A stretch of DNA of 64,000 nt from Acidobacteria bacterium bin61 (GCA_002238705.1 MPMW01000002.1:462-64461); one strand, 5' to 3'. Counted from the stretch's first letter, positions 8,427 to 59,851 are shown. The notes: generated by a model from the letters alone, not told the origin. Made by a program: numbers and translations.

Positions 8427-8605
8427 CAGCCTGGTGTGGTGTCCCGGGAATGGCGCGAGTCACCGAGAGCGGCGGGGCGCCCGGCTGACAAGGCTCGAAT
8501 CGGGAGGGATACCCAGTGTATTCCGACTGATTCGGAACGCGGAGCTTAGCGGCTCAGCCGGGATGCATCGCCGGTCGGATGCCGTGCGATCTCCGGGACA
8601 CTGCA
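8427..8605 (+). repeat. MITE-like intergenic repeat, copy A (ADE subfamily, + orientation)
   Basis: Begins cagcctggtgtggtgtcccgggaatggcgcgagtcaccgagagcggcggggcgcccggctgacaagg... It shares the core ...gaatcgggagg.ata.c..gtgtattccgactgattcggaacgc.gagc..agcggctcagccgggatg with copies D and E. It starts 7 nt upstream of the grpE start region. Its 3' part supplies the C-terminus and stop of the lipoate-ligase ORF. The right end is approximate. Confidence 0.7.
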
Positions 8606-9387
8606 CTGGCGCGCGGCTTCCAGATCCCGGCGAAACGACACGCCGAGCGCGGCCGCCACCTCACCGACCGCGGGAGGTGTCGCCTCCGGTCCGGCGAGCG
8701 GGAGTTCGGCGAGGCCGATCGCTTCCACCGGGGATTCGGGCGGCAGACCGGCGAGCGAGTTGGTGAGGGCGCGGTTCACTGTCCAGGGAATGGAGCCGTG
8801 CTGGAGGAATGCGCCGCGGCGCCAGCGCTGGGCGCCGGCCACCAGTTTCTTTCCCTGTGCGGTGATTTCGTGGCCGGTCGCCACCGCGTGACAGGGGAGA
8901 CGAGGGGCCTGGGGGTCGCGGGGCGGGGGCGCCGCCGGGGGGGAGGGGGGTCGTGGGTGTGGCGGGGCGGGGGCCCGGCGGGAGGGGGATCGAGGCGAAC
9001 GAAGCGGGCGACCGCCGTCCAGATGCATCCCATCACGCGAAAGTAGGCGCCCCGGACCCCCGGTGCGAACCCCCGGGGCGCGGCAAACGCGTAGGTGAGT
9101 TCGTCCGGCAGGTGCAAGAGGGCTCGCCCCCCGGTCGGGCGGTGAACCCAGGCAATCCCGAGAGCGGCGAGTGCGGCCGGATCCGTGGCGGTCTCGGGAG
9201 TTTGCCCATGTCCCAGGGTCAGGGTGGGCCGGGACCAGCGATAGAGACGAAGCGTTGGACCAGCGCCCATCGAGGCTCGCTCGAGCAACTCCCGATCCCG
9301 CCGCATGTTGGCCTCCCCATCCATGGGGGTTTCCCAATCCGCGAGCAGGCGAAGTCCGGTGCCCTCCTCGGGCGCGCCGGGGTTCAT
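8546..9387 (-). CDS. lipoate--protein ligase / octanoyltransferase family protein (BPL_LPL catalytic domain), reading frame disrupted
   Basis: The N-terminal half lies in one frame (MNPGAPEEGTGLRLLADWETPMDG...PTLRLYRWSRPTLTLGHGQ...). The C-terminal half lies in another (...GHEITAQGKKLVAGAQRWRRGAFLQHGSI..., the LplA/LipM-type lysine motif). The frame change maps to the G-rich low-complexity stretch around 8875-8991. The total length suits a ~280-aa single-domain ligase. Confidence 0.6.
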
Positions 9388-9401
9388 GCCCTTCGGTCCA
9401 A

Positions 9402-9570
9402 CAGCGGGTGGCGAAACCCCCGCGGCGTTCAAGCGGCGATGCATCCCGGCTGAACCTCGCCGCCGTTCGGCGCTCTGCGTTGCGTTCTGGTCCAAATACA
9501 CCTGTATTCCCCCCTTGCACGCCTTGTCAGCCGGGCGCCTCGCCGCTCACGCGGGTTTCACCACAGGCTG
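9402..9570 (-). repeat. MITE-like intergenic repeat, copy B (BC subfamily, reverse orientation)
   Basis: cagcgggtggcgaaacccccgcggcgttc...ccggctgaacc...gttgcgtt...aaatacacctgtattcc...ccttgtcagccgggcgcctcgccgctcacgcgggtttcaccacaggctg. Nearly colinear with copy C. It fills the ald-stop to ligase-start gap, ending 15 nt upstream of the ligase ATG. Confidence 0.75.
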
Positions 9571-9594
9571 GCAACGGTTCCCGGGCCGGGTCGA

Positions 9595-10710
9595 TCAGGC
9601 GATCAGTTCGTCGAGCGACTGAAATTCACGACCTTGCGATTCCGCGACGGGCCGGCAGGTGAGGCGGCCCGCATAGGTGTTCACACCGGGACGCAGGCAA
9701 CCGTCGCGGCGCACGGCCTCCTCGAATCCATGGTTGGCGATCGTGAGGGCGTACTCGAGCGTTACGTTGGTGAGCGCGTAGGTGGAGGTTCGGGGCATGG
9801 CGCCGGGCATGTTGGCGACGCAGTAGTGGACGACCCCGTCCACGACGTAGGTGGGTTTCGAGTGGGTGGTGGGCCGGGTCGTCTCGCAGCAGCCACCCTG
9901 GTCTACCGCAACGTCCACGATGACTGCACCTTCACGCATGGCGGCAATCATCTCGCGGGTGATGATGCGGGGTGCGGCCGCACCGGGAACCAGAACCGCA
10001 CCGACAACGAGGTCCGCTTCGGCGAGTGACGAGGCAAGCGTCACCGCACTCGACTTGAGGGTCGTGACGCGGCTCCCGAAGATGTCGTCGAGGTACCGCA
10101 TGCGGGCGGAACTCTTTTCCAGGATCGTGACCTCGGCGCCGATTCCGACGGCGAGCTTGGCGGCGTTGAGTCCCACGACGCCCCCGCCGACAATCACGGC
10201 TCGACCCCGGGGGACTCCCGGAACGCCGGCCAGCAGGATTCCCGAGCCTCCGCAGGAGCGGTGCAGGTGGTGCGCGCCTTCCTGGATCGCCATGCGGCCC
10301 GCTACTTCGCTCATGGGCGTCAGGAGCGGCAGGCTTCCGTCAGGCGCGGTGATGGTCTCGTAGGCGATCGCCGTCACTCCCCGGGACAGCAGTCCCTCGG
10401 TCAGTTCGGGCAGGGGAGCCAGATGGAGATAGGTGTAGAGAACCTGCCCTTCGCGGAGAAGTTCCACCTCTTCGGGCTGAGCCTCCTTGACCTTGATGAG
10501 GAGATCGCAGGTGTCGAACACCTCTTCGCGAGTCGCCGCGATCTGCGCGCCCGCGGTTGCGAATTCCTCGTCCGAGATCAGACTGCCGCGACCGGCCCCC
10601 GCTTCGACGAGCACCTCGTGGCCGGCGGCCACCAGGGTGTCGACACCTCCCGGAACCAATCCGACCCGGTTCTCGCTGTCCTTGATCTCCCGAACCGTAC
10701 CGATCCTCAT
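9595..10710 (-). CDS. ald: alanine dehydrogenase
   Basis: 371 aa. [40 protein letters not shown] and the Rossmann motif [27 protein letters not shown] match Ald (AlaDH/PNT family). Confidence 0.9.
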
Positions 10711-10751
10711 CGAACGCTCTTGTCCTTTCCTCTCCTGGTCCTGCCCTGGTC

Positions 10752-11186
10752 CTACGCTGCTCCTGCCGCGGTCCTGCCCCGCTCCTCAGTTGCCGCTCTT
10801 GTCTCCGGCGTTATCCTCGGTTCCGGTTTCGCTTCCGACTTGGCGCGGCTCCGCACGGTGCCCTCGAAGGTGGCCCCGGCATGCACGACCACCGTGGCGG
10901 CAAGAATTCCTCCGGTGAGGATCCCGGACGCGCCGATCTCCGCCTTTTCGATCGCCTCTACATCGCCTGTCATCCGGCCGTGAATGGTCACGTTCCGCGC
11001 CAGGATGGCGGCCTCGACCTGGCCGCCCTCCGGAATGAGCACCGCCGCGGTGCTCTCCACGGAGCCCTTGAGGCGACCCTGGATGCAGATGTCCTCGCGA
11101 GTCGTGATCTTGCCTTCGACACGGGTGTCCTGCCCGATCCAGGTCGAGCGGGCGCCCCGTTCGGGAGCGGGAGGCGTTTCGGTCAT
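10752..11186 (-). CDS. bactofilin family cytoskeletal protein
   Basis: 144 aa, ATG at 11186. Repetitive beta-helix signature: [29 protein letters not shown]...[29 protein letters not shown] (DUF583/bactofilin). The upstream part of the long ORF-track entry is spurious. Confidence 0.8.
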
Positions 11187-11252
11187 GAATGCCTCTTCTT
11201 CATTGGTGCGACGGAATAGGGCCATGAGACGGGACGGAACAGGGAAAGAGGA

Positions 11253-11328
11253 TGGAGCGGGCGACGGGGTTCGAACCCGCGACACCGAGCTTGGGAAGCT
11301 CGTACTCTGCCAACTGAGATACGCCCGC
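11253..11328 (-). tRNA. tRNA-Gly (anticodon CCC)
   Basis: Minus-strand sequence GCGGGCGTATCTCAGTTGGCAGAGTACGAGCTTCCCAAGCTCGGTGTCGCGGGTTCGAACCCCGTCGCCCGCTCCA folds as a cloverleaf. The 7-bp acceptor stem and GTTCGAA T-loop are present. The anticodon loop is TTCCCAA and CCA is encoded. Closely resembles canonical tRNA-Gly. The predicted 10:25 pair is U:U. Confidence 0.9.
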
Positions 11329-11344
11329 CCGGGAGCCGGTGATT

Positions 11345-12766
11345 CTACTCGGCGCGAGCCCGTGGCCGTCGCCTGGGGCTGGCTGCCGTCCGTTCGCCGG
11401 CACGCTCCAGTAGCGCCAGCAGTTCGTCGCGGCGGTCCTCGGCGAGTCCTTCGCGGTACGCCTCCAGGGTGAGCCGCATCACGGGTTCGGTGTTCGATGG
11501 CCGAAGGGTGAAGCGCCAGTCGGGAAAGTCCATCGTGAGTCCGTCCAGCGTGTCGACCCTCCCGCCCGGGAAGCTCTCGCGCACCAGGTCGAACGCGGCC
11601 GCCGGGTCGGGAACCACCCGGCTTTCCTCGTCGACAGTGAAATAGCGCCGGCGCAGGTCGCCCGCCAGCTCCGAGAGGGACCTTCCCGAGTCCCGGATAC
11701 GCTCGATCATGAGCAGGATGGGCAGCAAGGCGTTGTCCGCGTAGCCGGCGGCTCGAAAGAAGAAGTGCCCGCTGAGTTCTCCCCCGAATCGGGCGTCCTC
11801 CTGTCGCATCCGGCGCTTCAGGTAGGCGTGTCCGACACGGCCGGCGCGGGGTCGGCCGCCGGCTCGCGTCACCTCGTCCGGCACCGCCCGGGAGGACCGC
11901 AGGTCGAACACGATCGGAGTGCCCGGCTCCTTGGCGATCTCGGCAGGAGCCAGCAAGGCTGTCGTGAAGTCTCCGGGAATGTGCCCTCCCTGGTCGTCCA
12001 CGAAAACACAACGATCCGCATCCCCGTCCCACAGGACACCGAAGTCGGCGCCCTCCTCAAGGACCCGGCGCCGGAGAGGCTCCCGGTTTCGGGGATCAAG
12101 AGGGTTGGCGCCGCGGCTCGGGAAGTGGCCGTCGGGCCGGAACTGCACCGCCAGAAACTCTCCGGGGACGGCGGAGAAGACCTCGGCCGCCATGAGACCC
12201 CCCATCCCGTGGCCGGCGTCGAGCACCACGCGGAGCGCCGGGAGGGAACGGAAGTCGACCACGCTTTCCAAAAACGCCCGGTAGTCGCCGGCGATATCGC
12301 GTGGTGGTCCCGTCTCCGGGTCCTCGGGCAGGTCGGCTGGCGGCCCCGGAACTTCGTCGACGAGCCGCCGGATGTCCGGCAGTCCGTTCTCCTGGAAAAC
12401 CGGGGCGGCATCGCGCTCCACGAGCTTGATGCCGTTGTCGCCGGGCGGGTTGTGGGAGGCCGTGATCACGGCCCCGCCGTCCAGGCGGTCATGCCGGACG
12501 GCAAACCACATGGCGTCCGTCGGCAACATGCCGTAGTCGAAGATCTCGACGTTCGGCGCCTCCAGGCCCGCTCGGAACGCCCGGGCGAGCGCCGGACTGG
12601 TGAGCCGGGCGTCGCGCGCCATGCCGATTCGTCCGCCGCCAAGCCAGGTGGCGAACGCTCGGCCGACCCGCCACGCGAGTGACGGAGACAATGGCTCCGG
12701 CGCCGCCCCACGGATGTCGTAGGCCTTGAACAGCCCGGCTTCAGCGGGGTTCAGTTCTTGAGCCAT
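11345..12766 (-). CDS. phosphomannomutase/phosphoglucomutase (alpha-D-phosphohexomutase family)
   Basis: LFKAYDIRG N-terminus, active-site TASHNPPGDNGIKL, and an FGGELSGH-type sugar-binding loop. ATG at 12764-12766. Overlaps the upstream NTP-transferase gene by 16 nt. Confidence 0.85.
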   Translation of the reverse strand: MAQELNPAEAGLFKAYDIRGAAPEPLSPSLAWRVGRAFATWLGGGRIGMARDARLTSPALARAFRAGLEAPNVEIFDYGMLPTDAMWFAVRHDRLDGGAVITASHNPPGDNGIKLVERDAAPVFQENGLPDIRRLVDEVPGPPADLPEDPETGPPRDIAGDYRAFLESVVDFRSLPALRVVLDAGHGMGGLMAAEVFSAVPGEFLAVQFRPDGHFPSRGANPLDPRNREPLRRRVLEEGADFGVLWDGDADRCVFVDDQGGHIPGDFTTALLAPAEIAKEPGTPIVFDLRSSRAVPDEVTRAGGRPRAGRVGHAYLKRRMRQEDARFGGELSGHFFFRAAGYADNALLPILLMIERIRDSGRSLSELAGDLRRRYFTVDEESRVVPDPAAAFDLVRESFPGGRVDTLDGLTMDFPDWRFTLRPSNTEPVMRLTLEAYREGLAEDRRDELLALLERAGERTAASPRRRPRARAE

Positions 12767-13827: not shown

Positions 13828-13930
13828 CGACAGTCGGACAGGATACTCCCCTCTTCACTGCTGCCCGCTCCTGATAGCATCCTTGGCCCGCGCTGCGGGC
13901 GCGGAGAACTCCTTCGAACGTGTGCCCGAG

Positions 13931-14464: not shown

Positions 14465-14504
14465 ACGATCCGCCAGCGGGACGATCTTCTCCCCGCGCCG
14501 CCTG

Positions 14505-21403: not shown

Positions 21404-21435
21404 GCGGAGGCGCTCCCCCTCCGTCCCTCCGTCAG

Positions 21436-21490
21436 CAGCCTGTGGCGAAAGTGACGTGAGCACCGAGAATGGCAAGGCGCCCGGTCGCCG
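21436..21490 (+). repeat. 5' fragment (solo left end) of the MITE-like repeat, copy F
   Basis: cagcctgtggcgaaagtgacgtgagcaccgagaatggcaaggcgcccggtcgcc matches the first ~50 nt of the full element in + orientation (cagcctgtggtgaaacccgcgtgagcgccgaga..ggcgaggcgcccg...). It exactly fills the fmt-start to def-stop gap. Confidence 0.5.
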
Positions 21491-23190: not shown

Positions 23191-25464
23191 GTGCCAACCA
23201 TGGACCGGCCTTTGCAGACACCGCCGACGCGTGCCGGCCACGCCGCGGATACGAGCTTCGACGCGCGGGTGGCCGGGATGCACTGCGCCGGCTGTGTGGC
23301 GAGCATCGAAAAGGCAGTCACCAGCCTCCCGGGGGTCGCAAGCGCCGAAGTGAGCCTGCTTACCGGGGATCTCTCGGTACGGTTTTCTGAAATCGGAGCA
23401 GCGGGCGCGGCACGCGCCGCGGAGATCGCCGGCGCCGTAGCCTCGGCCGGTCCCTACACGCTGGAGCCAACGCGGGAAACCGCTATCGAATCTTCCGGGC
23501 AGGACGGGGCAACCGGGCCGCACACACACTCGGGGGGCGGACTGCTGCCCGTCGCCGCGGCCCTCGCACTTTCCGCGGCGGCCATGGCCGTCTCGATGAG
23601 TGGCATGGGGGGGACCGCTCTCGGCCGGTGGACCGTGTTCCTGCTCGCAACGCCCGTGTGTGTGCTGTTTGGCTGGAACTTTCTGTTGGCGCTCGGAACC
23701 TCGCTCCGGAACCGGGCGTTCGGAATGGACAGCCTGATCGGGCTGGGGGCGGGGACCGCTTACGTGTCGTCGGTGGTGAGCCTGTTGGGCGCCGCCGGGG
23801 GACCCCTGTTCTTCGATACCGCCGCGATCATCGTCGCGATCGTTCGCCTCGGGCGCTGGCTCGAGGATCGCGCCCGGAACCGGGCCGCGGACGCGCTCGG
23901 AGAACTGCTCGCCTTCGCTCCCGATGAGGCGCGGGTGGTACGTGAAGGCGTTGAGGAAATGGTGGCGGTGGCGCGCGTCGAAACCGGCGAGCGGGTTCGG
24001 GTGCGCCCCGGAGAACGGGTGCCCCTCGATGGCCGCATCGTCCGCGGTGGAGCCGCGATGGACGAATCGCTGGTGAGTGGGGAGAGCGTCCCGGTGGAGC
24101 GGGCGGCGCCCGATCCGGTGGTTGCCGGGGCGATGAACCTGACCGGCGCCGTCGAAATCGAAGTGACGCGCGCCGCTTCGGAGAGCACCCTCTCGCGGAT
24201 CGCGGCGGCGGTCCGAAAGGCGCAGACCGAGAAAATCCCCCTGCAACGGGCCGCCGACCGGGTGGCCGGGGTCCTCGTCCCGGTCATCATGGTGGTCGCC
24301 GCGGTGACCGTCGGAGGTTGGCTCCTTTGGGGCGGCGCCGCCGACTTCGCGCTCGCCCGCGGGGTGGCGGTGCTGGTGGTGGCCTGTCCCTGTGCGGTCG
24401 GGTTGGCGGCCCCCATCGCGGTGCTGGTCGCGACCGGCCGGAGCGCGCGGCGGGGGATTCTGTTCCGGTCCGGGGGGGCGCTCGAGGCCCTGGCTTCCGT
24501 CCGAGCGGTCGGACTCGACAAGACCGGGACGGTCACCACGGGCGAACCCGTGGTGGTCGCGCTGGAGCCGGCTCCGCCACAGACCGCCGGGACCCTGCTG
24601 AAACTCGCGGCTTCGGCGGAACAGGGATCCGAACACCCCCTGGGAAGAGCGCTTGTCGCCCACGCGGAGAAGGAAGGGACGGGGCTCAGTACCCCGGAAC
24701 GCTTCGAGGCATTGCCCGGGCGGGGCGTGACGGCGAGCTTTGACGGCGGGAACACCACGGTGTGGGTCGGAAGCGACCGGCTGGTTCGCGAGCGGGGCCT
24801 GTCCGTGCCCGCCAGCCCGGCCAGCAGCGGGGCGTCGGGCTGGCTTCGGGTGCTGCGTGAATCGGCGGGGCGTCTCGAGTTCGCGGGTAGCATCGGGTTT
24901 CGGGATCGGCCGCGTCCGGAAGCGGCGGAACTCGTCCGCAAACTCCACGAGGACGGGCTGGCGGTGTCGCTGGTTTCCGGCGACGAACCCGCCGCGGTCA
25001 CGGCAACCGGCTCGGAGATCGGAGTTCGTAACGTTGAGGGGGGACTTCTCCCGGACCAGAAGCTCTCGGCGGTGGATCGGCTGCGGGAGCGCTACGGTCC
25101 GGTCGCCATGGTCGGGGACGGCATCAACGACGCTCCGGCTCTGACCCGCGCCGACGTTGGTATCGCTTTTGCCGAGGGGACGGAGATCGCCCGGGAGGCG
25201 GCGGCAGTGACGCTGATGCGCCCGGACCTCAGGCTCGTGAGCGAAGCCCTGCGGATCGCGCGGCGCGCACTGCGGACGATCCGGCAGAATCTGTTCTGGG
25301 CTTTCTTCTACAACGTGGTCTCGGTGCCGCTCGCGGCCGGCGTCCTGTATCCGTCGACCGGGCTGTTGTTGCCGCCGGAGGCGGCAGCCGCCGCCATGGC
25401 GCTCTCCTCACTCACGGTGGTCGGGAACGCGCTCCGCCTCAGGTTCGGAGCGGGAAGCAGCTAA
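23191..25464 (+). CDS. copA: heavy-metal (copper-type) translocating P1B-type ATPase
   Basis: N-terminal HMA domain (GMHCAGCVASIEKAV). Membrane CPC motif (VVACPCAVGLAAPIAV). Phosphorylation site DKTGTVT, HP motif and GDGINDAPAL. Confidence 0.9.
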   Translation: MPTMDRPLQTPPTRAGHAADTSFDARVAGMHCAGCVASIEKAVTSLPGVASAEVSLLTGDLSVRFSEIGAAGAARAAEIAGAVASAGPYTLEPTRETAIESSGQDGATGPHTHSGGGLLPVAAALALSAAAMAVSMSGMGGTALGRWTVFLLATPVCVLFGWNFLLALGTSLRNRAFGMDSLIGLGAGTAYVSSVVSLLGAAGGPLFFDTAAIIVAIVRLGRWLEDRARNRAADALGELLAFAPDEARVVREGVEEMVAVARVETGERVRVRPGERVPLDGRIVRGGAAMDESLVSGESVPVERAAPDPVVAGAMNLTGAVEIEVTRAASESTLSRIAAAVRKAQTEKIPLQRAADRVAGVLVPVIMVVAAVTVGGWLLWGGAADFALARGVAVLVVACPCAVGLAAPIAVLVATGRSARRGILFRSGGALEALASVRAVGLDKTGTVTTGEPVVVALEPAPPQTAGTLLKLAASAEQGSEHPLGRALVAHAEKEGTGLSTPERFEALPGRGVTASFDGGNTTVWVGSDRLVRERGLSVPASPASSGASGWLRVLRESAGRLEFAGSIGFRDRPRPEAAELVRKLHEDGLAVSLVSGDEPAAVTATGSEIGVRNVEGGLLPDQKLSAVDRLRERYGPVAMVGDGINDAPALTRADVGIAFAEGTEIAREAAAVTLMRPDLRLVSEALRIARRALRTIRQNLFWAFFYNVVSVPLAAGVLYPSTGLLLPPEAAAAAMALSSLTVVGNALRLRFGAGSS

Positions 25465-25643
25465 CAGCCTGTGGCAAAACCCCCGCGGCGTTCGACGTGC
25501 GATCCATCCCGGCTGAACCGCGCCGCTTTGCGGCGCTCATCGTTGCGTTTCGGCCGAAATACACCGGGTATTCCGGCCTCACGCGCCTTGTCAGTCGGGC
25601 GCCTCGCCCGTCTCGGCGCTCACGCGGGTTTCACCACAGGCTG
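25465..25643 (-). repeat. MITE-like intergenic repeat, copy C (BC subfamily, reverse orientation), complete with terminal inverted repeats
   Basis: 179 bp: cagcctgtggcaaaaccc...tttcggccgaaa...gggtttcaccacaggctg. The TIRs are cagcctgtgg..aaaccc / gggtttc..ccacaggctg. It lies between the copA stop (25462-25464) and the stop of the convergent DUF349 gene (25644-25646), with no spare nucleotide. Confidence 0.8.
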
Positions 25644-28574
25644 TTAATCCCGGCGCGGCCGGTTTCCGCGAGCGCGGCCGCGATTCCGGCGACCGGGTTC
25701 CTCGTCCAGCGACGGCGCCCGGGCGATGACCTTCCGGGCGAGTCCTTCGAGGCGCCCCATCGTTTCGGTCGCCGGTCCCGATAGCGCCGGACCGGCGGCA
25801 CGGGCGCGCTCGAGAATCCTGGCCGCATCCTGTGCGGCTTCCCTGAGCACGGCGCCGCGATCCGCGGCGCGCCCTGCCTGGAGGGTGCGCCTCAGGTGCT
25901 CCGCGAAGTCGATCACTCCCCCCTCGGACGCGACCGGCGCGCGAGGTCGCGCGAGCGCTTCCATCTCTTCAAGCAGGGCCGCCAGCCGCGAAACCAGTTG
26001 TTCCTGGTCCAGGCGCGTCCCCGAAAAGGAATCGGGATCACCCTCGAGTGTTTCCCGAAGGCAAGTGAGGAGGGCGCTGGTGGTTTCGCGGGCCAGGCGG
26101 TCCCCCGCGCGGGAAATGCGCCGGTAGTCGTCCCAGAGCGCGACGGCGGCGTCGCGCCGCTCTTCCGCCGCCAGGGCGAGGAGGTCCGCGATCCGACCTC
26201 GCAGATCGGCGTCGGCTTCACTGGAGGGCGTGCGCTCGGGCACCATGGTGGTTTCGGCCTTCGCGTCTCCACGGCCTTCGCGGAGCCGGTCCCGAGCCCC
26301 GTCACAGGCACTGCGGAAGTCCTCCCAGAGGCGATCGCCCTCCTTGCGCGGGACGGGCGGTGACTCTTTCCACTCCCGCATCAAGTCGCGCACCGCGTTC
26401 CGCACGGTCTCGCCGTCGGTTTGGTCGAAGAGCGCCTTGGCCCGCGCGATGAGATTCTCGCGGATCGGGACGTTCGCGGCGAACTCCGCGTAGCGCTTTT
26501 TCCTCACTGCCTTGAGTTCGCTGAAGTACTGGTCGTTTGCGGCGCGGAATCGCTTCCACAGCCGCTCCGAGCGCTTCCCGATTCCCTTGGCGCGCTCGCG
26601 CCACTCGGGCATCAGCGAGCGAATCTCGTCGGCTCGCCGCGGATCGCCGCTCTCGGCTATCTGCTCTGCCTTTTCGACGAGCGCACGAAGCGCATCCAGC
26701 TTCTCGCCCAATTCGCGCTCCGCGGCTTCCCGGAGCGGGCCGATCCGTTCGAGGAGGGTTCGGCGGACCTCACCCCATTCTTCCCAGAGTTCCTGACCCC
26801 GGTCGCGTCCCGTGTGTCGCGCCGCATGCCAGGCGCGTTCGAGGGCCGTGAGCTCGCGATCGACGCGCTGCAGATCCTCCACCTCGACCAGCGCGCCAGC
26901 CCGGCGAATGAGTTCCGCCTGTTCCTCCAGATTGGACCAGTGACGCCACTCCCGGACTTCTCTGGCCTCCCGAAGCCTGGGCATCAGGGCCGCCTGAAGA
27001 CGCTGGAAACGGGTTTGCCGCTCGGGTCCGACCTGACGCCAGACGGCTGCATCGCTTCTGAGTTTCCCAAGTTCGCGAAGGGCGACCTCGCCGTCCTCGA
27101 GGGGAAAGGACTCCGACGATTCGAGCGCGGCAAGACGTTCCTCGAGGGCGGCGATCCGTCCCTCGGTCGTGCGGACCTGGTCCTGGTGCGCGGACTCGGC
27201 CGCGCCCAGCGCGGTTTCGGCTTCTCTGGCGGCCTTCCGGAACCGCTCGGCGTCCGGGCTTTCGGGTGGCTCCAGGCGATCGAACCGGCGCCCGAGTCGG
27301 GTCAGTTCCCGGCGAGACTGTGCTATTTCCGGCCCGGAGGGACGCTTGCCGAGCGATTTCGCCAGGGAAACCGCATGATCGGCCAGTTCGCCGATCTGAA
27401 ATTCCCGGACCCGGGCCTTCTTGCGCTCCAGAGCCCGGTCTCGCGCCTTCGCCACCGCGGCGCGCAACCGGGCGCGGACCGGTTCCGTGGAGGTCAGCCC
27501 TTCCAGAAGCGTGAGGCACTCCCGTTCGGCCAGGTCCAGTTCGGCCAGACCTGGAGCGCCTTCAGGGTCTTCCAGGCGGGCAAGAATTTCTTCGACCGCC
27601 GGCGGGAGGTCGGGCGACCGCTCGGGCTCTTCGACCGGAGGGAGATCCACACCCCCGGAAGCGGTCTGTTCCTCCGGGACGAGAAGCCGCGCCGCTCGCT
27701 CGTCGCGGGATCCCCCGCCCTCAAGCCGCACGCGCAGTTCTTCGAGCCGCGCGGTGAGTTCAGCTCCTACCGGCCCGGAGGCGAGGACGGCGTCGGCCTC
27801 CTCAAGCAGGCCCGCGTTCCGGTCGGGAGCCGCCGGATCGGCGTCGGCAAGGCGCTCCAACAAACCGCCCAGGGTTTTTTCCCGAAGCTGCACGCGTTCC
27901 GGATGATCTGGAGGCAGCCGTTCGTCGGCGCGGCGCCGGGCAAGCCGGCGCACGCTCTTCGAGGTCGCGCCGGTTGCCGCGGCGAGCAGCAATCCCGGGT
28001 CGTCCAGCCGCCGGACGGCAGCTTGGGCGGTCTCGCGGTGCTCTGCCGAAACCGCCACCTGAAGGAGGCCGTCCGGGCTGCGGATTGCCTCGAGGGCGTG
28101 GCTCCGGAGGGCCGGCTCCGCGGCTTTTCCAGCCACCGTGGCGAGGGCGGTATCGCGGTCGGCCTCGCCCGCGGGGACACTGGTCAACCGTGCGAGTGCC
28201 TCGGTGCGAATCGGGCCGAAATGGGCCCGGCACGCCACCTCGGCGACTGCCCGCAGCGCGCCGAGGAGTCCGAGCGCCCGCCGCGACTCATCCTCGTCCC
28301 GGTCGTCGGCCGCGATCTTGACGAGGAGTGCCTCGCCTCGGGAGCGGGCCAGCCGGCGGGCGCTCTCGTCGCCCGCGGTATCCGTCAGTTCGAGCAGCAC
28401 CCGGGGTGCTTCGAGGCGCCGCACGGCCTCTTTCCGGACGCGCGAGTCGGGATCCGAGCGCGCGAGATCGGCCAGCGTTTGCGTGTCCTCCGGCGGGTGT
28501 TTCTGGACCGCCTTGAGGCGGACGGCGGCGTCCCGGCTGCGGATCGGAGAAACGAATCGTTCGAGAACGGACAT
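25644..28574 (-). CDS. large DUF349-repeat protein with N-terminal HEAT-like repeats
   Basis: 976 aa from ATG 28574 (MSVLERF...). Repeated ~75-aa helical units end in LMPEWRERAKGIGKRSERLWKRFRAANDQYF and LMREWKESPPVPRKEGDRLWEDFRSACDGARD (DUF349 W..G.V.....LW.RF..ACD signature). The N-terminus has RVRKEAVRRL-type HEAT repeats. An upstream AT-rich stretch (gaatatagatgc) looks promoter-like. Confidence 0.7.
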   Translation of the reverse strand: MSVLERFVSPIRSRDAAVRLKAVQKHPPEDTQTLADLARSDPDSRVRKEAVRRLEAPRVLLELTDTAGDESARRLARSRGEALLVKIAADDRDEDESRRALGLLGALRAVAEVACRAHFGPIRTEALARLTSVPAGEADRDTALATVAGKAAEPALRSHALEAIRSPDGLLQVAVSAEHRETAQAAVRRLDDPGLLLAAATGATSKSVRRLARRRADERLPPDHPERVQLREKTLGGLLERLADADPAAPDRNAGLLEEADAVLASGPVGAELTARLEELRVRLEGGGSRDERAARLLVPEEQTASGGVDLPPVEEPERSPDLPPAVEEILARLEDPEGAPGLAELDLAERECLTLLEGLTSTEPVRARLRAAVAKARDRALERKKARVREFQIGELADHAVSLAKSLGKRPSGPEIAQSRRELTRLGRRFDRLEPPESPDAERFRKAAREAETALGAAESAHQDQVRTTEGRIAALEERLAALESSESFPLEDGEVALRELGKLRSDAAVWRQVGPERQTRFQRLQAALMPRLREAREVREWRHWSNLEEQAELIRRAGALVEVEDLQRVDRELTALERAWHAARHTGRDRGQELWEEWGEVRRTLLERIGPLREAAERELGEKLDALRALVEKAEQIAESGDPRRADEIRSLMPEWRERAKGIGKRSERLWKRFRAANDQYFSELKAVRKKRYAEFAANVPIRENLIARAKALFDQTDGETVRNAVRDLMREWKESPPVPRKEGDRLWEDFRSACDGARDRLREGRGDAKAETTMVPERTPSSEADADLRGRIADLLALAAEERRDAAVALWDDYRRISRAGDRLARETTSALLTCLRETLEGDPDSFSGTRLDQEQLVSRLAALLEEMEALARPRAPVASEGGVIDFAEHLRRTLQAGRAADRGAVLREAAQDAARILERARAAGPALSGPATETMGRLEGLARKVIARAPSLDEEPGRRNRGRARGNRPRRD

Positions 28575-32366: not shown

Positions 32367-32900
32367 ATGACGATTGCCAATCAACTCACCGTTCTCCGGC
32401 TGCTGCTGGCTCCGGTTGTCGTCATCTGCGTCCTCTACGGGCGCTTCGGGCTGGCGCTGGGAGCGCTCGTGCTGGCCGGGTTGACCGACATGATGGACGG
32501 GGCGCTTGCCCGCCGTCTCGGGGAGAACAGCGACCTCGGAGCGCTCCTCGATCCTCTCGCCGACAAGGTGCTGATCGTTTCGGCGGTGGTGACGCTGGCG
32601 GCGCCGATCGAGGCCGTGTCGGTACGTATTCCGGCCTGGGTAGCGATCATGGTGTTGTCCCGGGACGCCACGATTCTGTTCGTGGCCGGGGCCTACAACC
32701 TGGCGGTCGAGCGACGGTATTTCGCTCCCAGCCGGCTGGGCAAGGCGGCGACGGTGATCAACGTGGTCGGGATTCTGTGGTTCCTGGTGGCCAACCTCTA
32801 CCGGGTGGACAGCATTGTTACGCCGCTGCTGCTGGCGTCCATGGTGACCCTGACGGTGATCACCTCGCTCCAGTACCTCTGGCGCGTCCGCCTTCTCTAG
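32367..32900 (+). CDS. CDP-alcohol phosphatidyltransferase (second PgsA-like paralog)
   Basis: 177 aa. Motif TDMMDGALARRLGENSDLGALLDPLADK. Lies 28 nt downstream of gdh. Confidence 0.8.
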   Translation: MTIANQLTVLRLLLAPVVVICVLYGRFGLALGALVLAGLTDMMDGALARRLGENSDLGALLDPLADKVLIVSAVVTLAAPIEAVSVRIPAWVAIMVLSRDATILFVAGAYNLAVERRYFAPSRLGKAATVINVVGILWFLVANLYRVDSIVTPLLLASMVTLTVITSLQYLWRVRLL

Positions 32901-39454: not shown

Positions 39455-39754
39455 GCCTAGTGTGGTGTCCCGGAAATGGTGCGAGCCACCGAGAGCGGCG
39501 AGGCGCCCGGCTGACAAGACGCGAATCGGGAGGAATGCCGAGCGTATTCCGACTGATTCGGAACGCCGAGCGCAGCGGGTCAGCCGGACTCACACCGGGA
39601 GAAACGGGCATCGCCGCTCGCTTCCGGAGCGGGGCGAGAGCCCCGCGGAGACCCCTTGAGCGCGAGGGACGGAGGTTGGCGCCCAGCCAACCTCCATTCC
39701 TCGTGGCTCGGGCATGCCGTACCATTTCCGGGACACTGCACGGGCAGCCTGTGG
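39455..39754 (+). repeat. MITE-like intergenic repeat, copy D (ADE subfamily, + orientation, with ~130-bp internal insertion)
   Basis: Starts immediately after the tsaB TAG. Left TIR gcctagtgtggtgtcccggaaatgg. Right TIR ccatttccgggacactgcacgggcagcctgtgg. Core ...cccggctgacaagacgcgaatcgggaggaatgccgagcgtattccgactgattcggaacgccgagcgcagcgggtcagccgg... Confidence 0.8.
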
Positions 39755-46236: not shown

Positions 46237-47805
46237 GTGCGCGCGCGTCCCCGTCGAAACGCTCCGGCGAGCAGCCTCTTCGCTGCGGCCGCGGGGTTCC
46301 TGACCGTGGTGTTGGTCGTCGGCTCGGGCGTGGCCCGCGCTGGGCAAGGTCCTTTCTCGGAGCCGGCGGTGGCCGCGCCCCGCTGGCAGCCGCCCGAACA
46401 GCCGCCTGCTCAACCTCCCGAGCCGCAACCGCCGGGAGAAGAGGAGGAAGCTGAAGCACCGGAGGCGCCGGCCGAGGCCGAATCTCCCACCGAGGAGTCG
46501 GTCTCGGATGAGACCCCCGCCGGGGAAGCCCCCGGCGAAGCGGCGCCGGAGGGCGGCGAAACGGAGGGAGAAGAGCCCGAGGAAGACGGTGGGGGTTCGG
46601 GAAGGCGAGCGCCGGAGGTCGTTGCCGCGCCGGCGGGAATCCTCCCCGGCCGCATGATGGCGGCTCCGGCGCCCGCTCCGGGGGCCTCGGTCATCGGGAT
46701 GATCCTGGAAGACGACGGATTCCTCCTGCACGCGGCGAGCGGCGAGGTCATCGCCTACGAACCCGACGGGCAGGCCGCCCGGTGGGGCCTTCCCGAAGCC
46801 GGCGCGGCCTTCGTCGCGAGAGATTCCGAGACGGTCGTGCTGCTCGACAGGAACGGTGACGTGGCGCTGCGCCGCATCTCGGACGGAGTCCGGGTCGGAG
46901 GATTCTCCAGCGGATTCGTGCCCGATCACGCGAGCCTTGCCGGGTCGCTGCCCGAATCGGAGTCCGCATCGGAGCCCGAATGGGAGCCCGCATCGGAGCC
47001 GGGATCGGAGCCCGTATCGGAACTCGGTCCGGCGCCGGCCGCGCTGGCGGACGGGGTGCTCTACTGGGTATCGGCCGGAACCCTCCGGGGATTCCGGATT
47101 CCGGCCGGCAATCCGGTCCTGGAAGTGGAGCTTCCCGACGGGGAGGCGTCCAGCGTGGTGGTGGCGCCGGCCGGCGACGCGTCCGCGGAAGCCCACTTTC
47201 CACTCCTGCTGGTCTCCCTCGGCAGTGGTGGTCTGGTGGCGGTGGCGTCATCCCCGGGAACGACCGGCGGTGTGGTCCGCTGGCAGGCGGCGGGGGCGGG
47301 CCCGGTGACCGGTCCCGCCCTGGTGTTTCCCGCCGAACAGTTGGCGTTCTTCGGAGACGAGGGAGGGGATCTCACCGCGGTGCATCTGGAAACCGGCCGG
47401 CAGCGGTGGCGCTGGAGACTCGCGGAAGGCTTTCACCATCCGCCGCTGCTGAGTCGCGGGCGCCTCTACGCGGCCACGAAGGCAAACAGCCTCTATTGCT
47501 TCGACGCCAAACGAGGGGGCGAGCGTTGGCGCGCGGCGCTTCCGGGGCGGCCGGCGGCGTCCCCGCTCCGGATCGCCGGCGCCGTCGTAGTGGTCACGCA
47601 GGACGGGTTGCTGGTCGAGGTGAACGCGGAGACGGGCGCGCGGATCGGCCGTCCTCGCGATCTCGATGCCGAAGTCCTGGGGGTGGTGCGCCGGCTGGGG
47701 GACGGCGCCAGCGAGGAGGGATGGCGTGAACGCCGCCTCTTTCTGGGCCTCCGCGACGGGCGGCTGGCTGTTTTCGGCCCACGGATCGGCGGCGAAGCCC
47801 CCTGA
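46237..47805 (+). CDS. secreted PQQ-like beta-propeller repeat protein with acidic low-complexity linker
   Basis: Signal peptide. A ~90-aa E/P/A-rich linker ([36 protein letters not shown]...). C-terminal repeats with [14 protein letters not shown] / GRQRWRWRL of the PQQ/BamB-like type. Confidence 0.7.
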
Positions 47806-54386: not shown

Positions 54387-54391
54387 TTCCG

Positions 54392-56551
54392 ATGTCCGCA
54401 CGATCCCGCACCCGCTCCGGCGCGTCCTCCGGAAAAGGCTCGGGCCTTTCGAAGTGGATTGCTCCGGCGGTCACGGTGCTCGCGTTCGCGGGCTTCACGG
54501 TCTTCCTGGTTCTGCGCCTTCAGGAGGGATTCGAGAGGAGGGCGGGGGAATGGTTCGGGGCCGCCGATGAGGTGCCGGTCGAGCCGGAGGAAGTGGTCTC
54601 GATGGAGGTCGAGTTCTCCCGGTTCGACGAACACGGCCGGCTGGTTCTCGAAGGCCGGGCGGAGCAGGCCCTCGGCCGCAGTGACGGCCAGCAGCGGTTT
54701 CTGGAGGTCGAAGTGCGGCTGGTCGGGGTCTTCGCCGATGGAGATGCCGTGGTTGCCGCCGACGAACTCCTTCTCGACCCACAGACCGAGGCGGTTGAGT
54801 TCATCGGCAATGCCCTGTTGCGTGTTGAGGGTCTGGAACTCTCGGGGCCGCATCTGTACTTCCGGCGTGCACCGGACCGCCTCTGGTCGCGTGACCCGGT
54901 GCAGTTCCAGAGTGACGACTTCGTCGGGATCGCCGCTTCGATGCAGTTCGAGATCGTTGCCGGGGACGTCTCCTTGCAGGGCGTGGTGGCGTTGCCCGCG
55001 GCGGGTGGGGGGTTCGCAGTGATTGCGGAGCGGGTGCGGTTCGATGGAAACACGTCCGACACCTCACTCTTCGGAGACGTGGAGATCGCGTCGGATGAGC
55101 TCACCCTTTTCTCGGAAGAGTCGGTGATCGCCCGTCGGGACCTGGAGCGAAACCGGATGCGCTCCATCGAAGCCGGGTTCGGAACGGAGCTTGTATTCCT
55201 GGATCCGCCTGGTGAGGCGGGAGACGTTCGCGTGGACGAGGCGGTCGAAGAGCGACTGGTGCTGCGCGGAGACAAACTGGAGATCGACCTGGAGGAGGGA
55301 CGGATTCCCCGCCGGATCCGAGTCGAGGAGAACCCCCTGCTGCGGAGGGGCGCGGGGGTCGAACTCCGCGGCGACGCGGCTATGTTTGCCCTTGATTCCG
55401 AGGGCACCCCGGAACGCCTCAGCATGACCGGAGAGGTCAGGTCCCGCCTTCCCGGCGGTCCGGGCCGGCAATACCTCGTTTCGGTTGAGTCGGCCGGTCT
55501 GGCGGTGGAGTTCGATCCCTCCGGGAACATCACCGAGGCGTCTTTCCAGGGGCAGGTAGAAGCGCGCCACGGTCGAGCGTCCGCCACCGCGGACAACGCC
55601 CGTTGGGACGGTGTGGACACGCTCGTGCTGGAGGGGAATCCACGGCTTGTGGATTCGTCCCTCGTCGAACTCGAGAGTGGCGATCTACGGCTGGTCATTG
55701 GAGCGCCGAGCCGCATCGAGGCAGCCGCTGCGGTGACCGCCCGCTTCCTTCCGGCCCGTCTCGACTGGCTCCCCGGGGAGTTCGAAGGCGTGGTACTGAC
55801 TGGAGAGTCGGCGGTCCTGGAGGCGGGCAGCGGGCAAGGCGTCTTCACCGGAGCGGTGCGGCTGCTGTTCGGCAAGAACCGGCTGCTGTCCGACGAAGTC
55901 AGCGTGGACGCGGAAGGGAGAACGCTGGAAGCCACGGGGCAGGTGGTCACGTCGCTGGAGCTCGAAATCCCGGCCCCTGATGCCGAGGCCGGCGCCGGAG
56001 TTGACGCCGAAGCGGGCCTTCCGGATGCGGACGCCCTTCCGGCGGAGGCCGAACCCGGCGCCGCCCGAAGCGTGGTCGTGGGTGCGGGTGATCCCGCGGC
56101 CGCCGGCGCGTCCCCCGCTTCGCCGTTCGTGTTTACCGCCCGGGCCGAGCGATTTCGCTACGACGCGAACGCTTCGCGCCTGTCGTACGGAGGATCCCCG
56201 GAACTGGAACGCCAGGGGCCATCGGGGGAGCCCAGTCGACTCGTTGCTGGAAAAATCGAGGCCGAACTGACGCCAACGGGATCTCTCGGAGCGCTGCGAG
56301 GTGTCCAGGGAGCGCGTTTCGAACGCGGCGACAACCTGGTGCGGGGATTCCGGATCCGCTACGAGCCCGGGGCCGACATTCTGCTGGCCTGGGGGGCGCC
56401 GGCCGTCGTGCAGGTGGATGGAAGAACCTCGGAGGGAGGGCTCCTGGAACTGGCGCTGGCAGACAACCGAACGAAGATCCATCCGACCCGGGTCAGGCGC
56501 GCCATCACGCGCGCCCGCATCACCAGGAGGGAAGAGCCCTCCCGCCGCTGA
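54392..56551 (+). CDS. membrane-anchored LptC/LptA (OstA-like) multi-domain protein
   Basis: N-terminal TM anchor ([23 protein letters not shown]). About 690 aa of repeated beta-rich units in the LptC/LptA style (...[21 protein letters not shown]..., ...[21 protein letters not shown]..., ...[24 protein letters not shown]...). Sits immediately upstream of lptB–rpoN, where lptC and lptA normally sit. Assigned by position and repeat character only. Confidence 0.55.
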
Positions 56552-56558
56552 GCACGTC

Positions 56559-57452
56559 GTGACCGATTCCGCACCGGGCCTGCCCGTGTCGCCCCCGACG
56601 GGTGATCCGCCGGTCGCCTCGCCGGCGGGCGCCTCGCCGGCGGGGGGCGCGGCCGCGGGGGCCGGGGCGGCGGCCTCGCCGGGGGGCGCCGAGCCGGCGG
56701 TAGCCGAGCAGGAGTCCGGCGCCGGACATGTCCTCGCCTGTCAAGACCTGATCAAGACCTACGGAATGCGCCGGGTCGTGAATGAGGTGACGGTCCGGGT
56801 GCAAAGCGGCGAAGTGGTCGGCCTGCTGGGTCCGAACGGAGCGGGGAAGACCACTACGTTTCGCATGATCGTCGGATCGATCCAGCCTGATCACGGCACC
56901 GTGTTCCTCGATGATCGGGATCTCACCGGCCTCGCCATGCATCGCCGCGCCCGTTCGGGAATCGGATACCTCCCGCAGGAGCCATCCATCTTCCGTGGAC
57001 TCACGGTCGAAGAGAACGTGCTGGCAATCCTCGAACAGGTGCCACGGATGGGGCGGCGGGAACGGCGCGAGCGGGCCGAGGAGCTGCTTCGGGAATTCGG
57101 CCTCACCGAGCGCCGGCGCAACCTGGGACATTCCCTCTCCGGCGGCGAACGGCGGCGGGCTGAAATCGCCCGGGCCCTCGCGCCTGATCCGCGGTTCCTG
57201 TTGCTCGACGAACCATTCGCCGCGATCGATCCGATCGCGGTCTCCGAGTTGCAAGGGATCGTCGGGAGTCTGCGCGACCGGGGGCTCGGCGTGCTCGTGA
57301 CCGACCACAGCGTTCGCGAAACGCTCCGGGTAACCGACCGGGCCTACATCATCGAGGAGGGCCGGATTCTGTTTGAGGGCACCCCCGGGGAGCTCGTCCG
57401 CAGTTCCGAGGTACGCCGCGCCTACCTCGGCGAGGACTTCGAGTGGCAGTGA
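56559..57452 (+). CDS. lptB: LPS export ABC transporter ATP-binding protein LptB, with a P/A/G-rich N-terminal extension
   Basis: Walker [10 protein letters not shown], signature LSGGERRR, Walker B LLLDEP. Aligns with E. coli LptB from [12 protein letters not shown]. The only in-frame start upstream of that block is GTG 56559, which gives a ~55-aa low-complexity leader. Confidence 0.8.
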
Positions 57453-58939
57453 GCACCAAGTCCGGGACCCGAACCGAACTGCGAGTCGGCGTTCGCCAGC
57501 AGCAACGCCTCACCTTGACGCCACAGGTAAGGCAGACCATCGAGATGCTCGTGCTGCCGCTTACGGAACTCCGGGTTCGGGTGCAACAGGAGTTGCTCCA
57601 GAACCCGGCGCTCGAAGAGGTGGCCGAAGAGGAGGAGGAGTCCGAATCCGAAGAGGCGGAGGCCGGGGAGGAGAACGAAACGGACGACAGTGCGCCGGAT
57701 GACGAGCCCGACCCGATGGCGGAGATCGAAGCCGAGGACTTTTTCCAGGAAAACCAGGACAACACCGGGGGGCTCGCCCTCGGCGAGGAACCGCCCGCCC
57801 TCGAGCGGACCCTGGCCGCCGGACGCACCCTCGCCCTGCATCTGATCGAGCAACTCGGTCCGTCCGTCGAGACGGAACTCGAGCGAACGATCGGCCTGGA
57901 AATCATCGGAAACCTCGACGAGAGGGGGTATCTCGATGCCTCGGTCCCGGAGATTGCCGGCAGCCTGGGTGTCGCGGAAGAGCAAGTCGAGTCGATGCGG
58001 AGGCGTATCCTGCGTTTCGATCCCACCGGCGTCGCCGCTCTGGATCTGGGGGAATGCCTGCTCGCGCAGCTCGAGGCGGCCGGCCAGTCCGGTGGGCCGC
58101 TCGGCAGAATCGTGCGGGAACATCTGGATCTCGTCATCCGGGAACGCTTTCGGGAACTTGCCAGCGTCATGGGCAGCGATATTTCGGTCGTGATGCGCTG
58201 GGTTCGCCGCATCGGGGAGCTGGACTTTCGTCCGGGCACTCAGTTTTCGCCGGGTCCGGAGCAAGTCGTGGTGCCGGATGCCCGGGCGTACCAGTTCAAC
58301 GGGGAATGGCGCGTCGAAATGAGTGACGGGATCCCGAAGCTCCGCACCAGTCCGGCCTACCGGGTGGTGCTGAAGACTCCCGACCGGCACACGCCTGAGG
58401 AACAGGCCTTTGCGCGCGATGCCTGGGTCCGCGCCAAGGGATTCCAGCGCTCGGTGCAGCAACGCCAGGAGACCGTTCGACTCGTCGCCGAGGACATCGT
58501 GCACAAGCAGACCGATTTCCTGAATCGCGGAATCGCCCATATCCGGCCGCTGGTCCTGAACGACGTCGCACAGGACATCGGACGGGCGGAGTCCACGGTG
58601 TCGCGCGTCGTGAGCAACAAGTTCCTGGAGACTCCCCGTGGAGTGATCCCCTTCCGGCGGTTCTTTCACAGCGCCCTCTCCCTTCGCGACGGACGTCAGG
58701 TGTCGTCGGAGGCGGTCCGGGCCCGGGTTCAGCGGATCGTGGAACGCGAAGATCCGCAGCACCCACTGGCGGACGACCAGATCGTTCAGCTCCTCGACCG
58801 CGAGGGGATCATGATCGCCCGCCGTACAGTGGCCAAGTACCGCAAATCCCTCAAGATTCCGTCTTCCAACGAACGGCGCGCCCGCTATCGCAACCGTGCT
58901 CCCGGACGGATTCCCGGCTGGGGACCCGCCAGGAGTTGA
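57443..58939 (+). CDS. rpoN: RNA polymerase sigma-54 factor
   Basis: Region I ([16 protein letters not shown]), acidic region II, and the C-terminal RpoN box [20 protein letters not shown] start overlaps the lptB stop. Confidence 0.95.
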
Positions 58940-58972
58940 CCGGCAGCGGCGGCTCCCCGATACTGCCCGGCG

Positions 58973-59464
58973 ATGATCGGTATTGTCGTTGTCACCCACG
59001 GGCAATTGGCGCGGGAACTCGTTGCTGCCGCCGAAATGATCACCGGCGAGGACATTCCCAACGCCACCAGCGTTTCCATCGGTTGGCACGACGCGCCGGA
59101 CGATGCGCAGCGAGCCATCGTGACGGCGGTCGAACGGGTCTCCGGAAAGGAGGGGGCCGTGATCCTCACGGACATGTTCGGCGGCACGCCGTCCAATCTC
59201 GCCCTCAGTCTGCTCAAGGAGGGTCAGGTTGAAGTTGTGACGGGAGTCAACCTGCCCATGCTGATCCGCCTCGTCTCGATCCGCGAGGAGGAGCGGGTCG
59301 GACCCGCCGAAGCGGCGCGGGCGGCGCTTTTTCAGGGCAAGGAGAACATCTATCTCGCCTCCGAATTGCTCGGTGGCGGGCTTGGCGCAGTTCCGGCGGC
59401 GGAGGAGTCCGAGGAAGCGGCCGAGACGGCCGTGGAGAATCAGGTCGGGCCGGGCCAGGACTAG
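58973..59464 (+). CDS. PTS EIIA component, mannose/sorbose class (PTS_EIIA_4)
   Basis: MIGIVVVTHGQLARELVAAAEMITG...VILTDMFGGTPSN is the ManX-N/EIIA-Man fold with the active-site His in the VTHG context. Confidence 0.8.
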   Translation: MIGIVVVTHGQLARELVAAAEMITGEDIPNATSVSIGWHDAPDDAQRAIVTAVERVSGKEGAVILTDMFGGTPSNLALSLLKEGQVEVVTGVNLPMLIRLVSIREEERVGPAEAARAALFQGKENIYLASELLGGGLGAVPAAEESEEAAETAVENQVGPGQD

Positions 59465-59851
59465 TGTGGTGTCCCGTAAATCGTGCGAGTCACCGAGAGC
59501 GGCCCAGTTGCTATGGAAGAACGAACTCTGTCTTACATGTGGCGGGGTGAGCGGACGGACCGATCATGGACATTTCTCCCGGTGGGGGCGGCGCCCGGCT
59601 GACCCAGTTCTCCCGGTCGGGGCGGCGCGAATCGGGAGGAATACCGGGTGTATTCCGACTGATTCGGAACGCCGAGCGCAGCGGTTCAGCCGGGATGAAA
59701 CGCAAGGTCGCTTCGAAGCGGTACCCGCTGCATTCCCGCTGGCCCCCACCGGGAGACCCAGCCTGTCCTCCCGGTGGGGGTCAGCGAGGCCCGGCGGGCT
59801 CAGTTCTCCCGGTGAGGGCTCCGGGGCTCACGCCGGTTGCACCACAGGCTG
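59461..59851 (+). repeat. MITE-like intergenic repeat, copy E (ADE subfamily, + orientation, two internal insertions)
   Basis: Starts on the EIIA TAG: ctagtgtggtgtcccgtaaatcgtgcgagtcaccgagagcggc... Core gaatcgggaggaataccgggtgtattccgactgattcggaacgccgagcgcagcggttcagccgggatg. Right TIR ggttgcaccacaggctg ends at 59851, 33 nt upstream of the HPr start. Confidence 0.8.

Follow-up and report, generated by a model that had tools for sequence, protein, structure and literature searches.

Miniature inverted-repeat transposable elements of bacteria (MITEs) measure less than 200 bp, have TA termini and target-site duplications, and give transcripts with long stem-loops (PMC2229807). RUP, for example, inserts at TA targets, which has been attributed to IS630-type transposases (PMC2229807). 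Other systems act through a single DNA strand: single-strand transposition is coupled to the replication fork (PMC5027513), and in sedentary integron arrays the folding strand of attC lies on the leading-strand template (PMC5371416). Here, we analyzed a 64,000-nucleotide stretch of Acidobacteria bacterium bin61 (GCA_002238705.1 MPMW01000002.1:462-64461), the whole of which we refer to as the window. It holds five copies, named A to E, of a ~185-nt non-coding interspersed repeat. We find that selection preserves a secondary structure of one strand of this repeat, and that the repeat is not neutral. On balance, we favor a reading in which copies A to E are non-autonomous, MITE-like mobile elements whose fold serves their own propagation as single-stranded DNA. 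The copies are:

Copy A, 8431-8609, plus strand: intact, terminus type ii (TA/TG followed by GTGTGGTGTCCCGG...), CTGG flanks on both sides, nhmmer E 1.7e-34
Copy B, 9398-9574, minus strand: decayed, terminus type i, nhmmer E 3.6e-42
Copy C, 25461-25647, minus strand: intact, type i, flanks TTAA (5') and TTAG (3')
Copy D, 39457-39745, plus strand: type ii, repeat family D6; the nhmmer match covers 39458-39587 only
Copy E, 59461-59704, plus strand: type ii 5' arm and core

Repeat finding, alignment and nhmmer all agree with the first-pass annotation of this DNA that the five copies are true members of one family. A scan of a genome collection with a pattern made from the conserved core gave at least 111 loci, which were fetched in this way (L001-L111). 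Among the matches listed, all were metagenome-assembled genomes (MAGs) of Acidobacteriota, with Vicinamibacteria, 'Candidatus Marinacidobacterium' and sponge-associated bins as hosts. We built an alignment and an nhmmer profile from 94 clean copies, and the profile found 248 matches in 944 kb. Near full length were 168 of these, only 2 of which lay within called genes, the family being mostly intergenic. We conclude that the element is abundant in Vicinamibacteria-like Acidobacteriota MAGs. Searching the whole window against Rfam 15 at the gathering score returned a tRNA as the only match, and searching copies A and B at E<=10 returned chance matches only. Viral contigs gave no match to the element, and in the literature we found no description of repeats from this lineage of Acidobacteriota.

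The repeat is under selection for a fold

The whole element forms one long imperfect hairpin, in which a ~55-bp rod (P1-P3) is capped by a three-way junction with two hairpins. Numbered by the columns of the 94-copy alignment, the rod pairs 19-48 with 177-205 (P1), 53-61 with 165-173 (P2) and 65-75 with 151-162 (P3), and the apical part pairs 82-85 with 119-122 (P4), 89-99 with 105-115 (P5) and 131-137 with 141-147 (P6). Across the 94 copies, 96.6% of cells are paired in this fold, with 97.5% paired in P1. Double-sided changes occur in 38 of the 65 pairs (471 cells), a result reached by none of 500 shuffles, and sliding the partners by 1-3 columns reduced pairing to 32-40%. The conserved local hairpin is GGAAUAC-loop-GUAUUYC together with further pairs that extend it. 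In the alignment P3 does not vary, as it was part of the search pattern; P3 compensations (C71-G155, G73-C153 and U67-A159, along with the variant CCUCGCUGA/UCAGCGAGA) do appear in copies that were obtained independently of the core pattern. When each copy was compared with its three nearest relatives, 28 private double changes kept a pair versus 4 that broke one. Unpaired bases of the core were as conserved as paired bases, with private change rates of 2.9% and 2.7%, respectively. The first-pass annotation had argued from covariation that selection acts on structure and that this is not a neutral repeat. That inference stands, since the full fold covaries, but the small hairpin offered as evidence for it is not conserved (see below).

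The supported apical hairpin was placed in copies A and C:

Apical hairpin of copy A, 8496-8534, plus strand: CGAAUCGG-GA-GGGAUAC-loop-GUAUUCC-GA-CUGAUUCG, from the minimum-energy fold, core -23.0 kcal/mol
Apical hairpin of copy C, 25552-25578, minus strand: GGCCGGAAUAC-loop-GUAUUUCGGCC, core fold -24.2 kcal/mol

Copy A as a whole folds at -112.5 kcal/mol (z -6.07) and copy C at -116.4 kcal/mol (z -7.50). Other copies are degraded. Copy B has a 10-nt deletion in the 5' arm, a broken apical hairpin and the weakest fold (z -2.96). Copy D is interrupted between core and 3' arm by ~125 nt of nested inserts (39588-39713), with which it folds at z -10.9, and copy E has lost its matching 3' arm and was invaded by mini-repeats and a remnant of an insertion sequence (IS) of the IS110 family. 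A relic in a related genome (locus L090) is degraded as well, and we conclude that the fold is not maintained copy by copy.

The imperfect pairs of the stems point to one strand. We counted 525 G.U or U.G cells versus 33 A.C or C.A cells, a ~16-fold excess on that strand, and private changes were likewise 72 to G.U versus 26 to A.C. The aligned strand folds better than its complement in all 94 copies, with RNA and DNA parameters alike; mean energies are -116 versus -96 kcal/mol with RNA parameters and -61 versus -52 kcal/mol with DNA parameters. Strand-biased C>T mutation was rejected as the source of the G.U excess, as unpaired sites show 5 C>T versus 32 G>A changes.

Termini, flanks and empty sites

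Termini of type i are inverted over ~20 nt and read RCAGCCKGTGG...CCACMGGCTGY with TA directly outside at each end, and the ends pair over more than 20 nt. The flanking TA lies within YTAR (CTAG or TTAA), which is often the stop codon of a neighboring gene. In the 56 copies that have TA at both ends, the inner flank base was complementary in 53 and the outer in 38, a pattern consistent with duplication of TA at N-TA-N targets, palindromic ones being preferred.

At orthologous sites, a single CTAG is seen where the element is absent and two where it is present. The window itself has a single CTAG at 32898-32900, the stop codon of gene 32367-32900, where locus L063 reads CTAG-element(s)-CTAG. 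In L090, the site of copy A is empty, with a single ACTAG, and the site of copy B holds an even more decayed relic. Filled and empty counterparts were also found in L037/L049 and L027/L032, and between paralogous sites of L101. The search of flanks against flanks was swamped by repeats, and we relied on the few clean cases. In L093, the site of copy C is occupied by another subtype in the same orientation, and in L059 it holds an element that points the other way; because subtype or orientation differs, this site was filled independently in three genomes. Look-ups around copies A/B and E showed no variation in presence or absence of the element within the window's own population.

Stop codons recur at these sites. 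The flanks of copy C hold the stop codons of both convergent neighbors (25462-25464 and 25644-25646), as would be the case if the element had inserted into a TTAA shared by two overlapping stop codons and the duplication had preserved both. Copy D begins 2 nt past the stop codon of the upstream gene, and in copy E the CTAG of the 5' arm contains the stop codon of the phosphotransferase system (PTS) EIIA gene. Across the family, the flank contains the stop codon for ~37% of the gene ends next to an element, and stop codons may be a natural source of TA-containing targets in a genome of 69% G+C.

Copies also nest in one another or fuse at a shared CAGCCGG, and chimeric copies exist. A metagenome search by termini alone found 9 elements, of which 6 had the same or a compensated core. 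The remaining 3 had the same inverted termini of at least 19 nt and TA flanks around unrelated interiors, which is the expectation if a transposase recognizes the termini:

L130:2314-2482, L134:1984-2173 and L137:560-729: elements with termini ACAGCCTGTGGTGAAAGT... and unrelated interiors, which are richer in A+T

These elements suggest a wider family defined by its termini. As a separate observation, the interiors of L130 and L134 contain REP-like GGCACGA...TCGTGCC hairpins.

Orientation to genes and chromosome arcs

Between co-oriented genes, the folding strand was antisense in 65 cases versus sense in 29 (p 3e-4), or 49:22 when one copy per locus was counted. We then took chromosome coordinates for loci L005-L111. 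Element orientation switches between two arcs, which account for 33 of 37 elements in OZ244986.1 (permutation p <0.003) and for 31 of 38 in OZ252286.1 (permutation p 0.01), and overall the element strand opposes the dominant gene direction 54:21. One-strand selection for pairing, a conserved three-way-junction module and orientation on the scale of replichores are unusual for a MITE-like repeat.

A model for propagation as single-stranded DNA

In the reading that we favor, a predicted transposase, probably an IS630/Tc1-mariner-type enzyme that duplicates TA, would move the element via its termini, and the fold would serve the element itself, which would propagate as single-stranded DNA at the replication fork. 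In the simplest form of this model, single-stranded DNA would be exposed on the lagging-strand template. A copy with its folding strand on that template would fold and excise more readily, and the surviving copies would then be enriched in the opposite orientation. Sedentary integron arrays, with their attC folding strand on the leading-strand template, show this behavior (PMC5371416). Such enrichment of survivors would explain both the arcs and the mostly antisense orientation. We infer that a role of single-stranded DNA in mobility is to be preferred over a host regulatory RNA.

Several observations weigh against this reading. Because the targets are palindromic, a TA duplication is indistinguishable from a 4-nt duplication or from flanks that extend the stem. 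Among 756 open reading frames (ORFs) near elements, we found no recurrent transposase and no multi-copy transposase cluster, and no autonomous element came to light. Tolerance of G.U pairs is explained at least as well by RNA as by single-stranded DNA. On the side of orientation, CAXXLQ010000004.1 and CBDHFO010000017.1 showed no arc pattern, elements split only 8:4 where arc and local gene direction conflict, and replication direction was itself inferred from gene-strand bias. A GC-skew orientation test on the 8-kb loci had no power (genes 206:188), and the window copies are 3 on the plus strand and 2 on the minus strand. Orientation bias linked to replication is also common in IS families for other reasons (PMC3971601). 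Finally, the three terminus types share one inner module of ~140 nt, so that the center is conserved and the ends vary between subtypes; a core shared in this way fits poorly with recognition by termini alone, an observation that carries an ascertainment bias in that the loci were fetched by the core pattern.

Alternative explanations

The chief competitor, which we consider rather unlikely, is a double-stranded cut-and-paste MITE of the Correia/ERIC/RUP type, mobilized through its inverted termini by an IS630-like transposase. Here, the hairpin would matter only as a co-transcribed RNA stem-loop that is cleaved or stabilizes the mRNA, and sense insertions in operons would be more harmful, producing the orientation bias. 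The size, TA termini, duplication-like flanks and long stem-loop are those published for bacterial MITEs (PMC2229807). The elements with unrelated interiors between the same termini agree with this explanation, as do the G.U pairs, which are typical of RNA helices, and the many copies that lie directly past stop codons. However, for ~70% of the copies that lie between co-oriented genes, transcription would yield the opposite strand, which has the A.C mismatches, leaving selection on the sense RNA without an obvious source. A harmful sense RNA would not be expected to keep its fold, individual copies decay, and the ORFs near elements include no cognate IS.

A second alternative is that the ~140-nt inner module, rod and three-way junction together, is the working part of an undescribed structure-guided element that acts as a folded single strand on interchangeable termini, with the strand setting whether a copy is mobile or locked. 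We consider this improbable. If true, a folded-strand module, acting as single-stranded DNA at the replication fork or as an RNA intermediate, would be a bacterial analogue of attC-like recombination in a dispersed repeat.

The idea of the first-pass annotation was a structured RNA with a host function, which would be a cis-regulatory element in 3' untranslated regions or a multiplied small RNA gene, and we give it little credence. The strong covariation, the unpaired core that is conserved to the same degree as the paired core, the one inner module common to three terminus types, and the position of 4 of the 5 window copies 3' of a gene on the same strand are all compatible with it. Yet no Rfam family matched and no promoter-like site came from scans. 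Around copies A, B and C there were no terminator-like sites, the elements ending in GGCTGYTAR and not in a hairpin with a U tract. Across the family, the orientation is mostly antisense to genes. The neighbors are unrelated housekeeping genes (for example grpE, ald and the gene for PTS EIIA); orthologous sites differ in whether they have an element and in which way it points; and copies decay, nest and are interrupted. The element bears the marks of mobility, and the reading as an RNA that is trans-encoded or regulates in cis is unsupported.

Two known RNA classes were also considered and rejected. For a TnpB-associated omega-RNA, the genes upstream of B, D and E encode Ald, a TsaD-like protein and PTS EIIA, and not TnpB. 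A hammerhead-like reading of CUGACAA...GAAAC was rejected by inspection: CUGA is paired in P3, the position of the catalytic G8 is an A, and the order of helices does not fit.

The small hairpin of copies A, D and E lies outside the fold

The covariation argument of the first-pass annotation concerned a 6-bp hairpin (UUCCGA/UCGGAA) in copies A, D and E, a different stem at the same place in copy C, and copy B as a less perfect intermediate. The strings on which it was built are present, and copy B reads gtatttggaccagaacgca as had been reported:

Proposed hairpin in copies A, D and E, 8521-8537, 39547-39563 and 59653-59669, all plus strand: exact matches to TTCCGACTGATTCGGAA, found exactly three times (0 expected from shuffles)
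Palindrome in copy C, 25545-25562, minus strand: exact match to GTATTTCGGCCGAAACGC, found once

The comparison of these stems did not survive alignment. The A/D/E stem occupies columns 108-113 with 119-124 and the stem of C columns 108-111 with 116-119, so the registers differ and non-homologous pairs had been compared. Copies A, D and E are not three independent observations, because they carry an identical 17-mer from one shared subfamily, and copy B is a decayed copy and not an intermediate. The proposed hairpin has an energy of -6.0 kcal/mol in A, D and E; the palindrome of C leaves no loop, and its best case is 4 bp with a 4-nt loop at -0.2 kcal/mol.

Nor did covariation appear in either register across the 94 copies. 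In the A/D/E register, 68% of cells were paired, a score no better than that of shuffles, and 2 of the 6 positions were unpaired in 87/94 and 84/94 copies. In the C register, 84% were paired with 0 double changes, and one pair was broken in 36/94 copies. Within the A/D/E subfamily (16 copies), the proposed hairpin was 92.7% paired with 0 compensatory changes, and its sole variable partner breaks the pair in 7 of the 16. The long apical hairpin in the same subfamily was 93.7% paired, with 5 pairs changed on both sides. Further, a competing 16-bp hairpin has a 5' strand with which the bases assigned to the loop of the small hairpin covary (e.g. AU:9/UA:7). The two hairpins use the same bases and are therefore mutually exclusive. 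The isolated core folds on the long hairpin at -22 to -30 kcal/mol, and the best folds forced to hold the small one were 6-13 kcal/mol worse. We conclude that the 6-bp hairpin lies outside the element's fold.

That it is a real alternative conformer, or switch, of the A/D/E subfamily is very improbable: all six pairs can form in 9 of the 16 copies, and a G variant allows its third pair to form at the expense of the terminal pair of the competing helix, but the lack of compensation, the energies, the covariation of the loop bases with the competing helix and the positions left unpaired in most of the family all speak against it. The case illustrates how a plausible covariation argument from a few copies can choose the wrong helix, which was resolved here with ~100 aligned copies.

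Nested repeats and other features of the window

Besides the five copies, the window contains the following fragments and inserts:

21431-21484, plus strand: solo 5' fragment of type i (5' strands of P1 and P2, start of P3), nhmmer E 8e-09, profile positions 6-59
59817-59855, plus strand: solo 3'-arm fragment of type i, repeat family D5
59570-59588, 59604-59622, 59743-59761 (minus strand), 59762-59780 and 59800-59818: 19-nt mini-repeat CCAGTTCTCCCGGTGGGGG, five copies in or after copy E, 5 matches versus 0.08 expected
59511-59574, no strand assigned: IS110-family remnant of 64 nt, which splits a mini-repeat into CCCAGTT and TTCTCCCGGTGGGGG

The mini-repeat has ~170 exact copies across L001-L111. 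It nests in the element at no fewer than five fixed positions, namely in the 5' strands of P2 and P3, the apical hairpin, P6 and the 3' arm. Either orientation occurs, and some copies are arranged in tandem. At the point of the window remnant, a population contig (L116:2936-4692) has a full IS110-family IS with a 419-aa transposase (PF01548 and PF02371). This IS sits exactly inside the mini-repeat with TT on both sides (CCAGTT, then the IS, then TTCTCCC), and since the window remnant, which derives from one end of the IS, lies at the same point, the mini-repeat looks like the specific target of this IS. The element and the interior of the IS110 copy share no similarity.

Other arrangements were seen. 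A second nested module of ~95 nt (CTTCCGGAGCGGGGCGAGAGCCCCGCGGAGACCCC...GGAGGTTGGCGCCCAGCCAACCTCC...) in copy D (39610-39713) forms two further hairpins and recurs at the same element position in L020, L071 and L099. Two more were noted in L085:6713-7138, L061:6691-6834 and L038:1005-1146: tandem arrays of the element's 3' part, with a period of ~71 nt and up to six units, and a recurrent composite in which a second element is inserted at profile position 137/138, the junctions being the same in many loci.

Window genes were called with a codon log-odds caller, and exact-protein look-ups for the neighbors of copies C and D found none on record. A lipoate-protein-ligase-like (LplA-like, PF21948) gene (8590-9444, minus strand) has a 44-nt tandem duplication at 8894-8981 that is missing from six population contigs (L120-L124, L126). 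The duplication causes a frameshift, and either the gene is a pseudogene or this is a variant of the strain or an error of assembly. At the gene's 3' end, the antisense of copy A (8546-8610, minus strand) encodes the final ~19 codons (QCSVPEIARHPTGDASRLSR and stop). Its original stop was seemingly lost and the frame extended into copy A, as the flank reads CTGG versus CTAG at the empty site of L090. In the population contigs, the gene caller puts the start of the same gene inside copy B. Elsewhere, predicted gene 46237-47805 (plus strand) contains six units of a GAGCCCGAATCG-like repeat, with a period of 12 nt, at 46938-47033.

Copies of the element break assemblies, mislead gene callers, which place starts and C-terminal extensions inside them, and supply target sites for an IS110-family element. 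The family is a well-supported, very abundant structured repeat in poorly studied, uncultured marine and sponge-associated Vicinamibacteria-like Acidobacteriota. With its one-strand pairing, insertion at stop codons, modular nesting and orientation by arcs, it is a good system for asking whether a repeat acts through folding of single-stranded DNA at replication or through RNA.

Comparison with known systems

Correia/NEMIS of Neisseria, ERIC/IRU of enterobacteria and RUP of pneumococcus resemble the element in being shorter than 200 bp, non-coding, multi-copy and intergenic, and in having inverted termini with 5'-TA-3' ends, duplication-like flanks and a long stem-loop formed by the whole element (PMC2229807). 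Unlike them, the element is G+C-rich and not A+T-rich, and it has a conserved, covarying three-way-junction interior shared by three terminus types. The ~16-fold G.U excess over A.C on one strand, the chromosome-scale orientation bias and the failure to find a partner IS also set it apart.

Palindrome-associated elements derived from IS200/IS605, and REP/RAYT systems, share strand-specific hairpins with the element and may share a replication-linked orientation; the tetranucleotide conserved in the element's flanks might correspond to a target or to a site of cleavage (PMC5027513, PMC6006769). These systems have separate subterminal hairpins and no inverted termini, whereas here the ends are complementary and form one stem. 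The polarity is also opposite to that of IS608, as the folding strand here is apparently on the leading-strand template, if genes are co-oriented with replication. We saw no Y1 (HUH) transposase, although no search was aimed at Y1 genes in full genomes.

Integron attC sites are similar in that they are imperfect hairpins that act as one folded DNA strand, with structure conserved more than sequence (PMC5371416). In contrast to attC, the element has no cassette arrays, integrase context or R''/R' core sites, and its copies are scattered beside housekeeping genes in both orientations. The pattern of conservation is the reverse as well, with a conserved center and variable ends.

The element also nests and combines modules, namely the 19-nt mini-repeat, the ~95-nt second module and the parts of chimeric copies. 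BIMEs of E. coli and NIMEs with dRS3 of Neisseria are mosaic intergenic repeats that, as here, have nesting modules and a short repeat that is a target of IS110-family elements. Sequences and hosts differ from those of BIMEs and NIMEs, and the main module here is a long branched hairpin.

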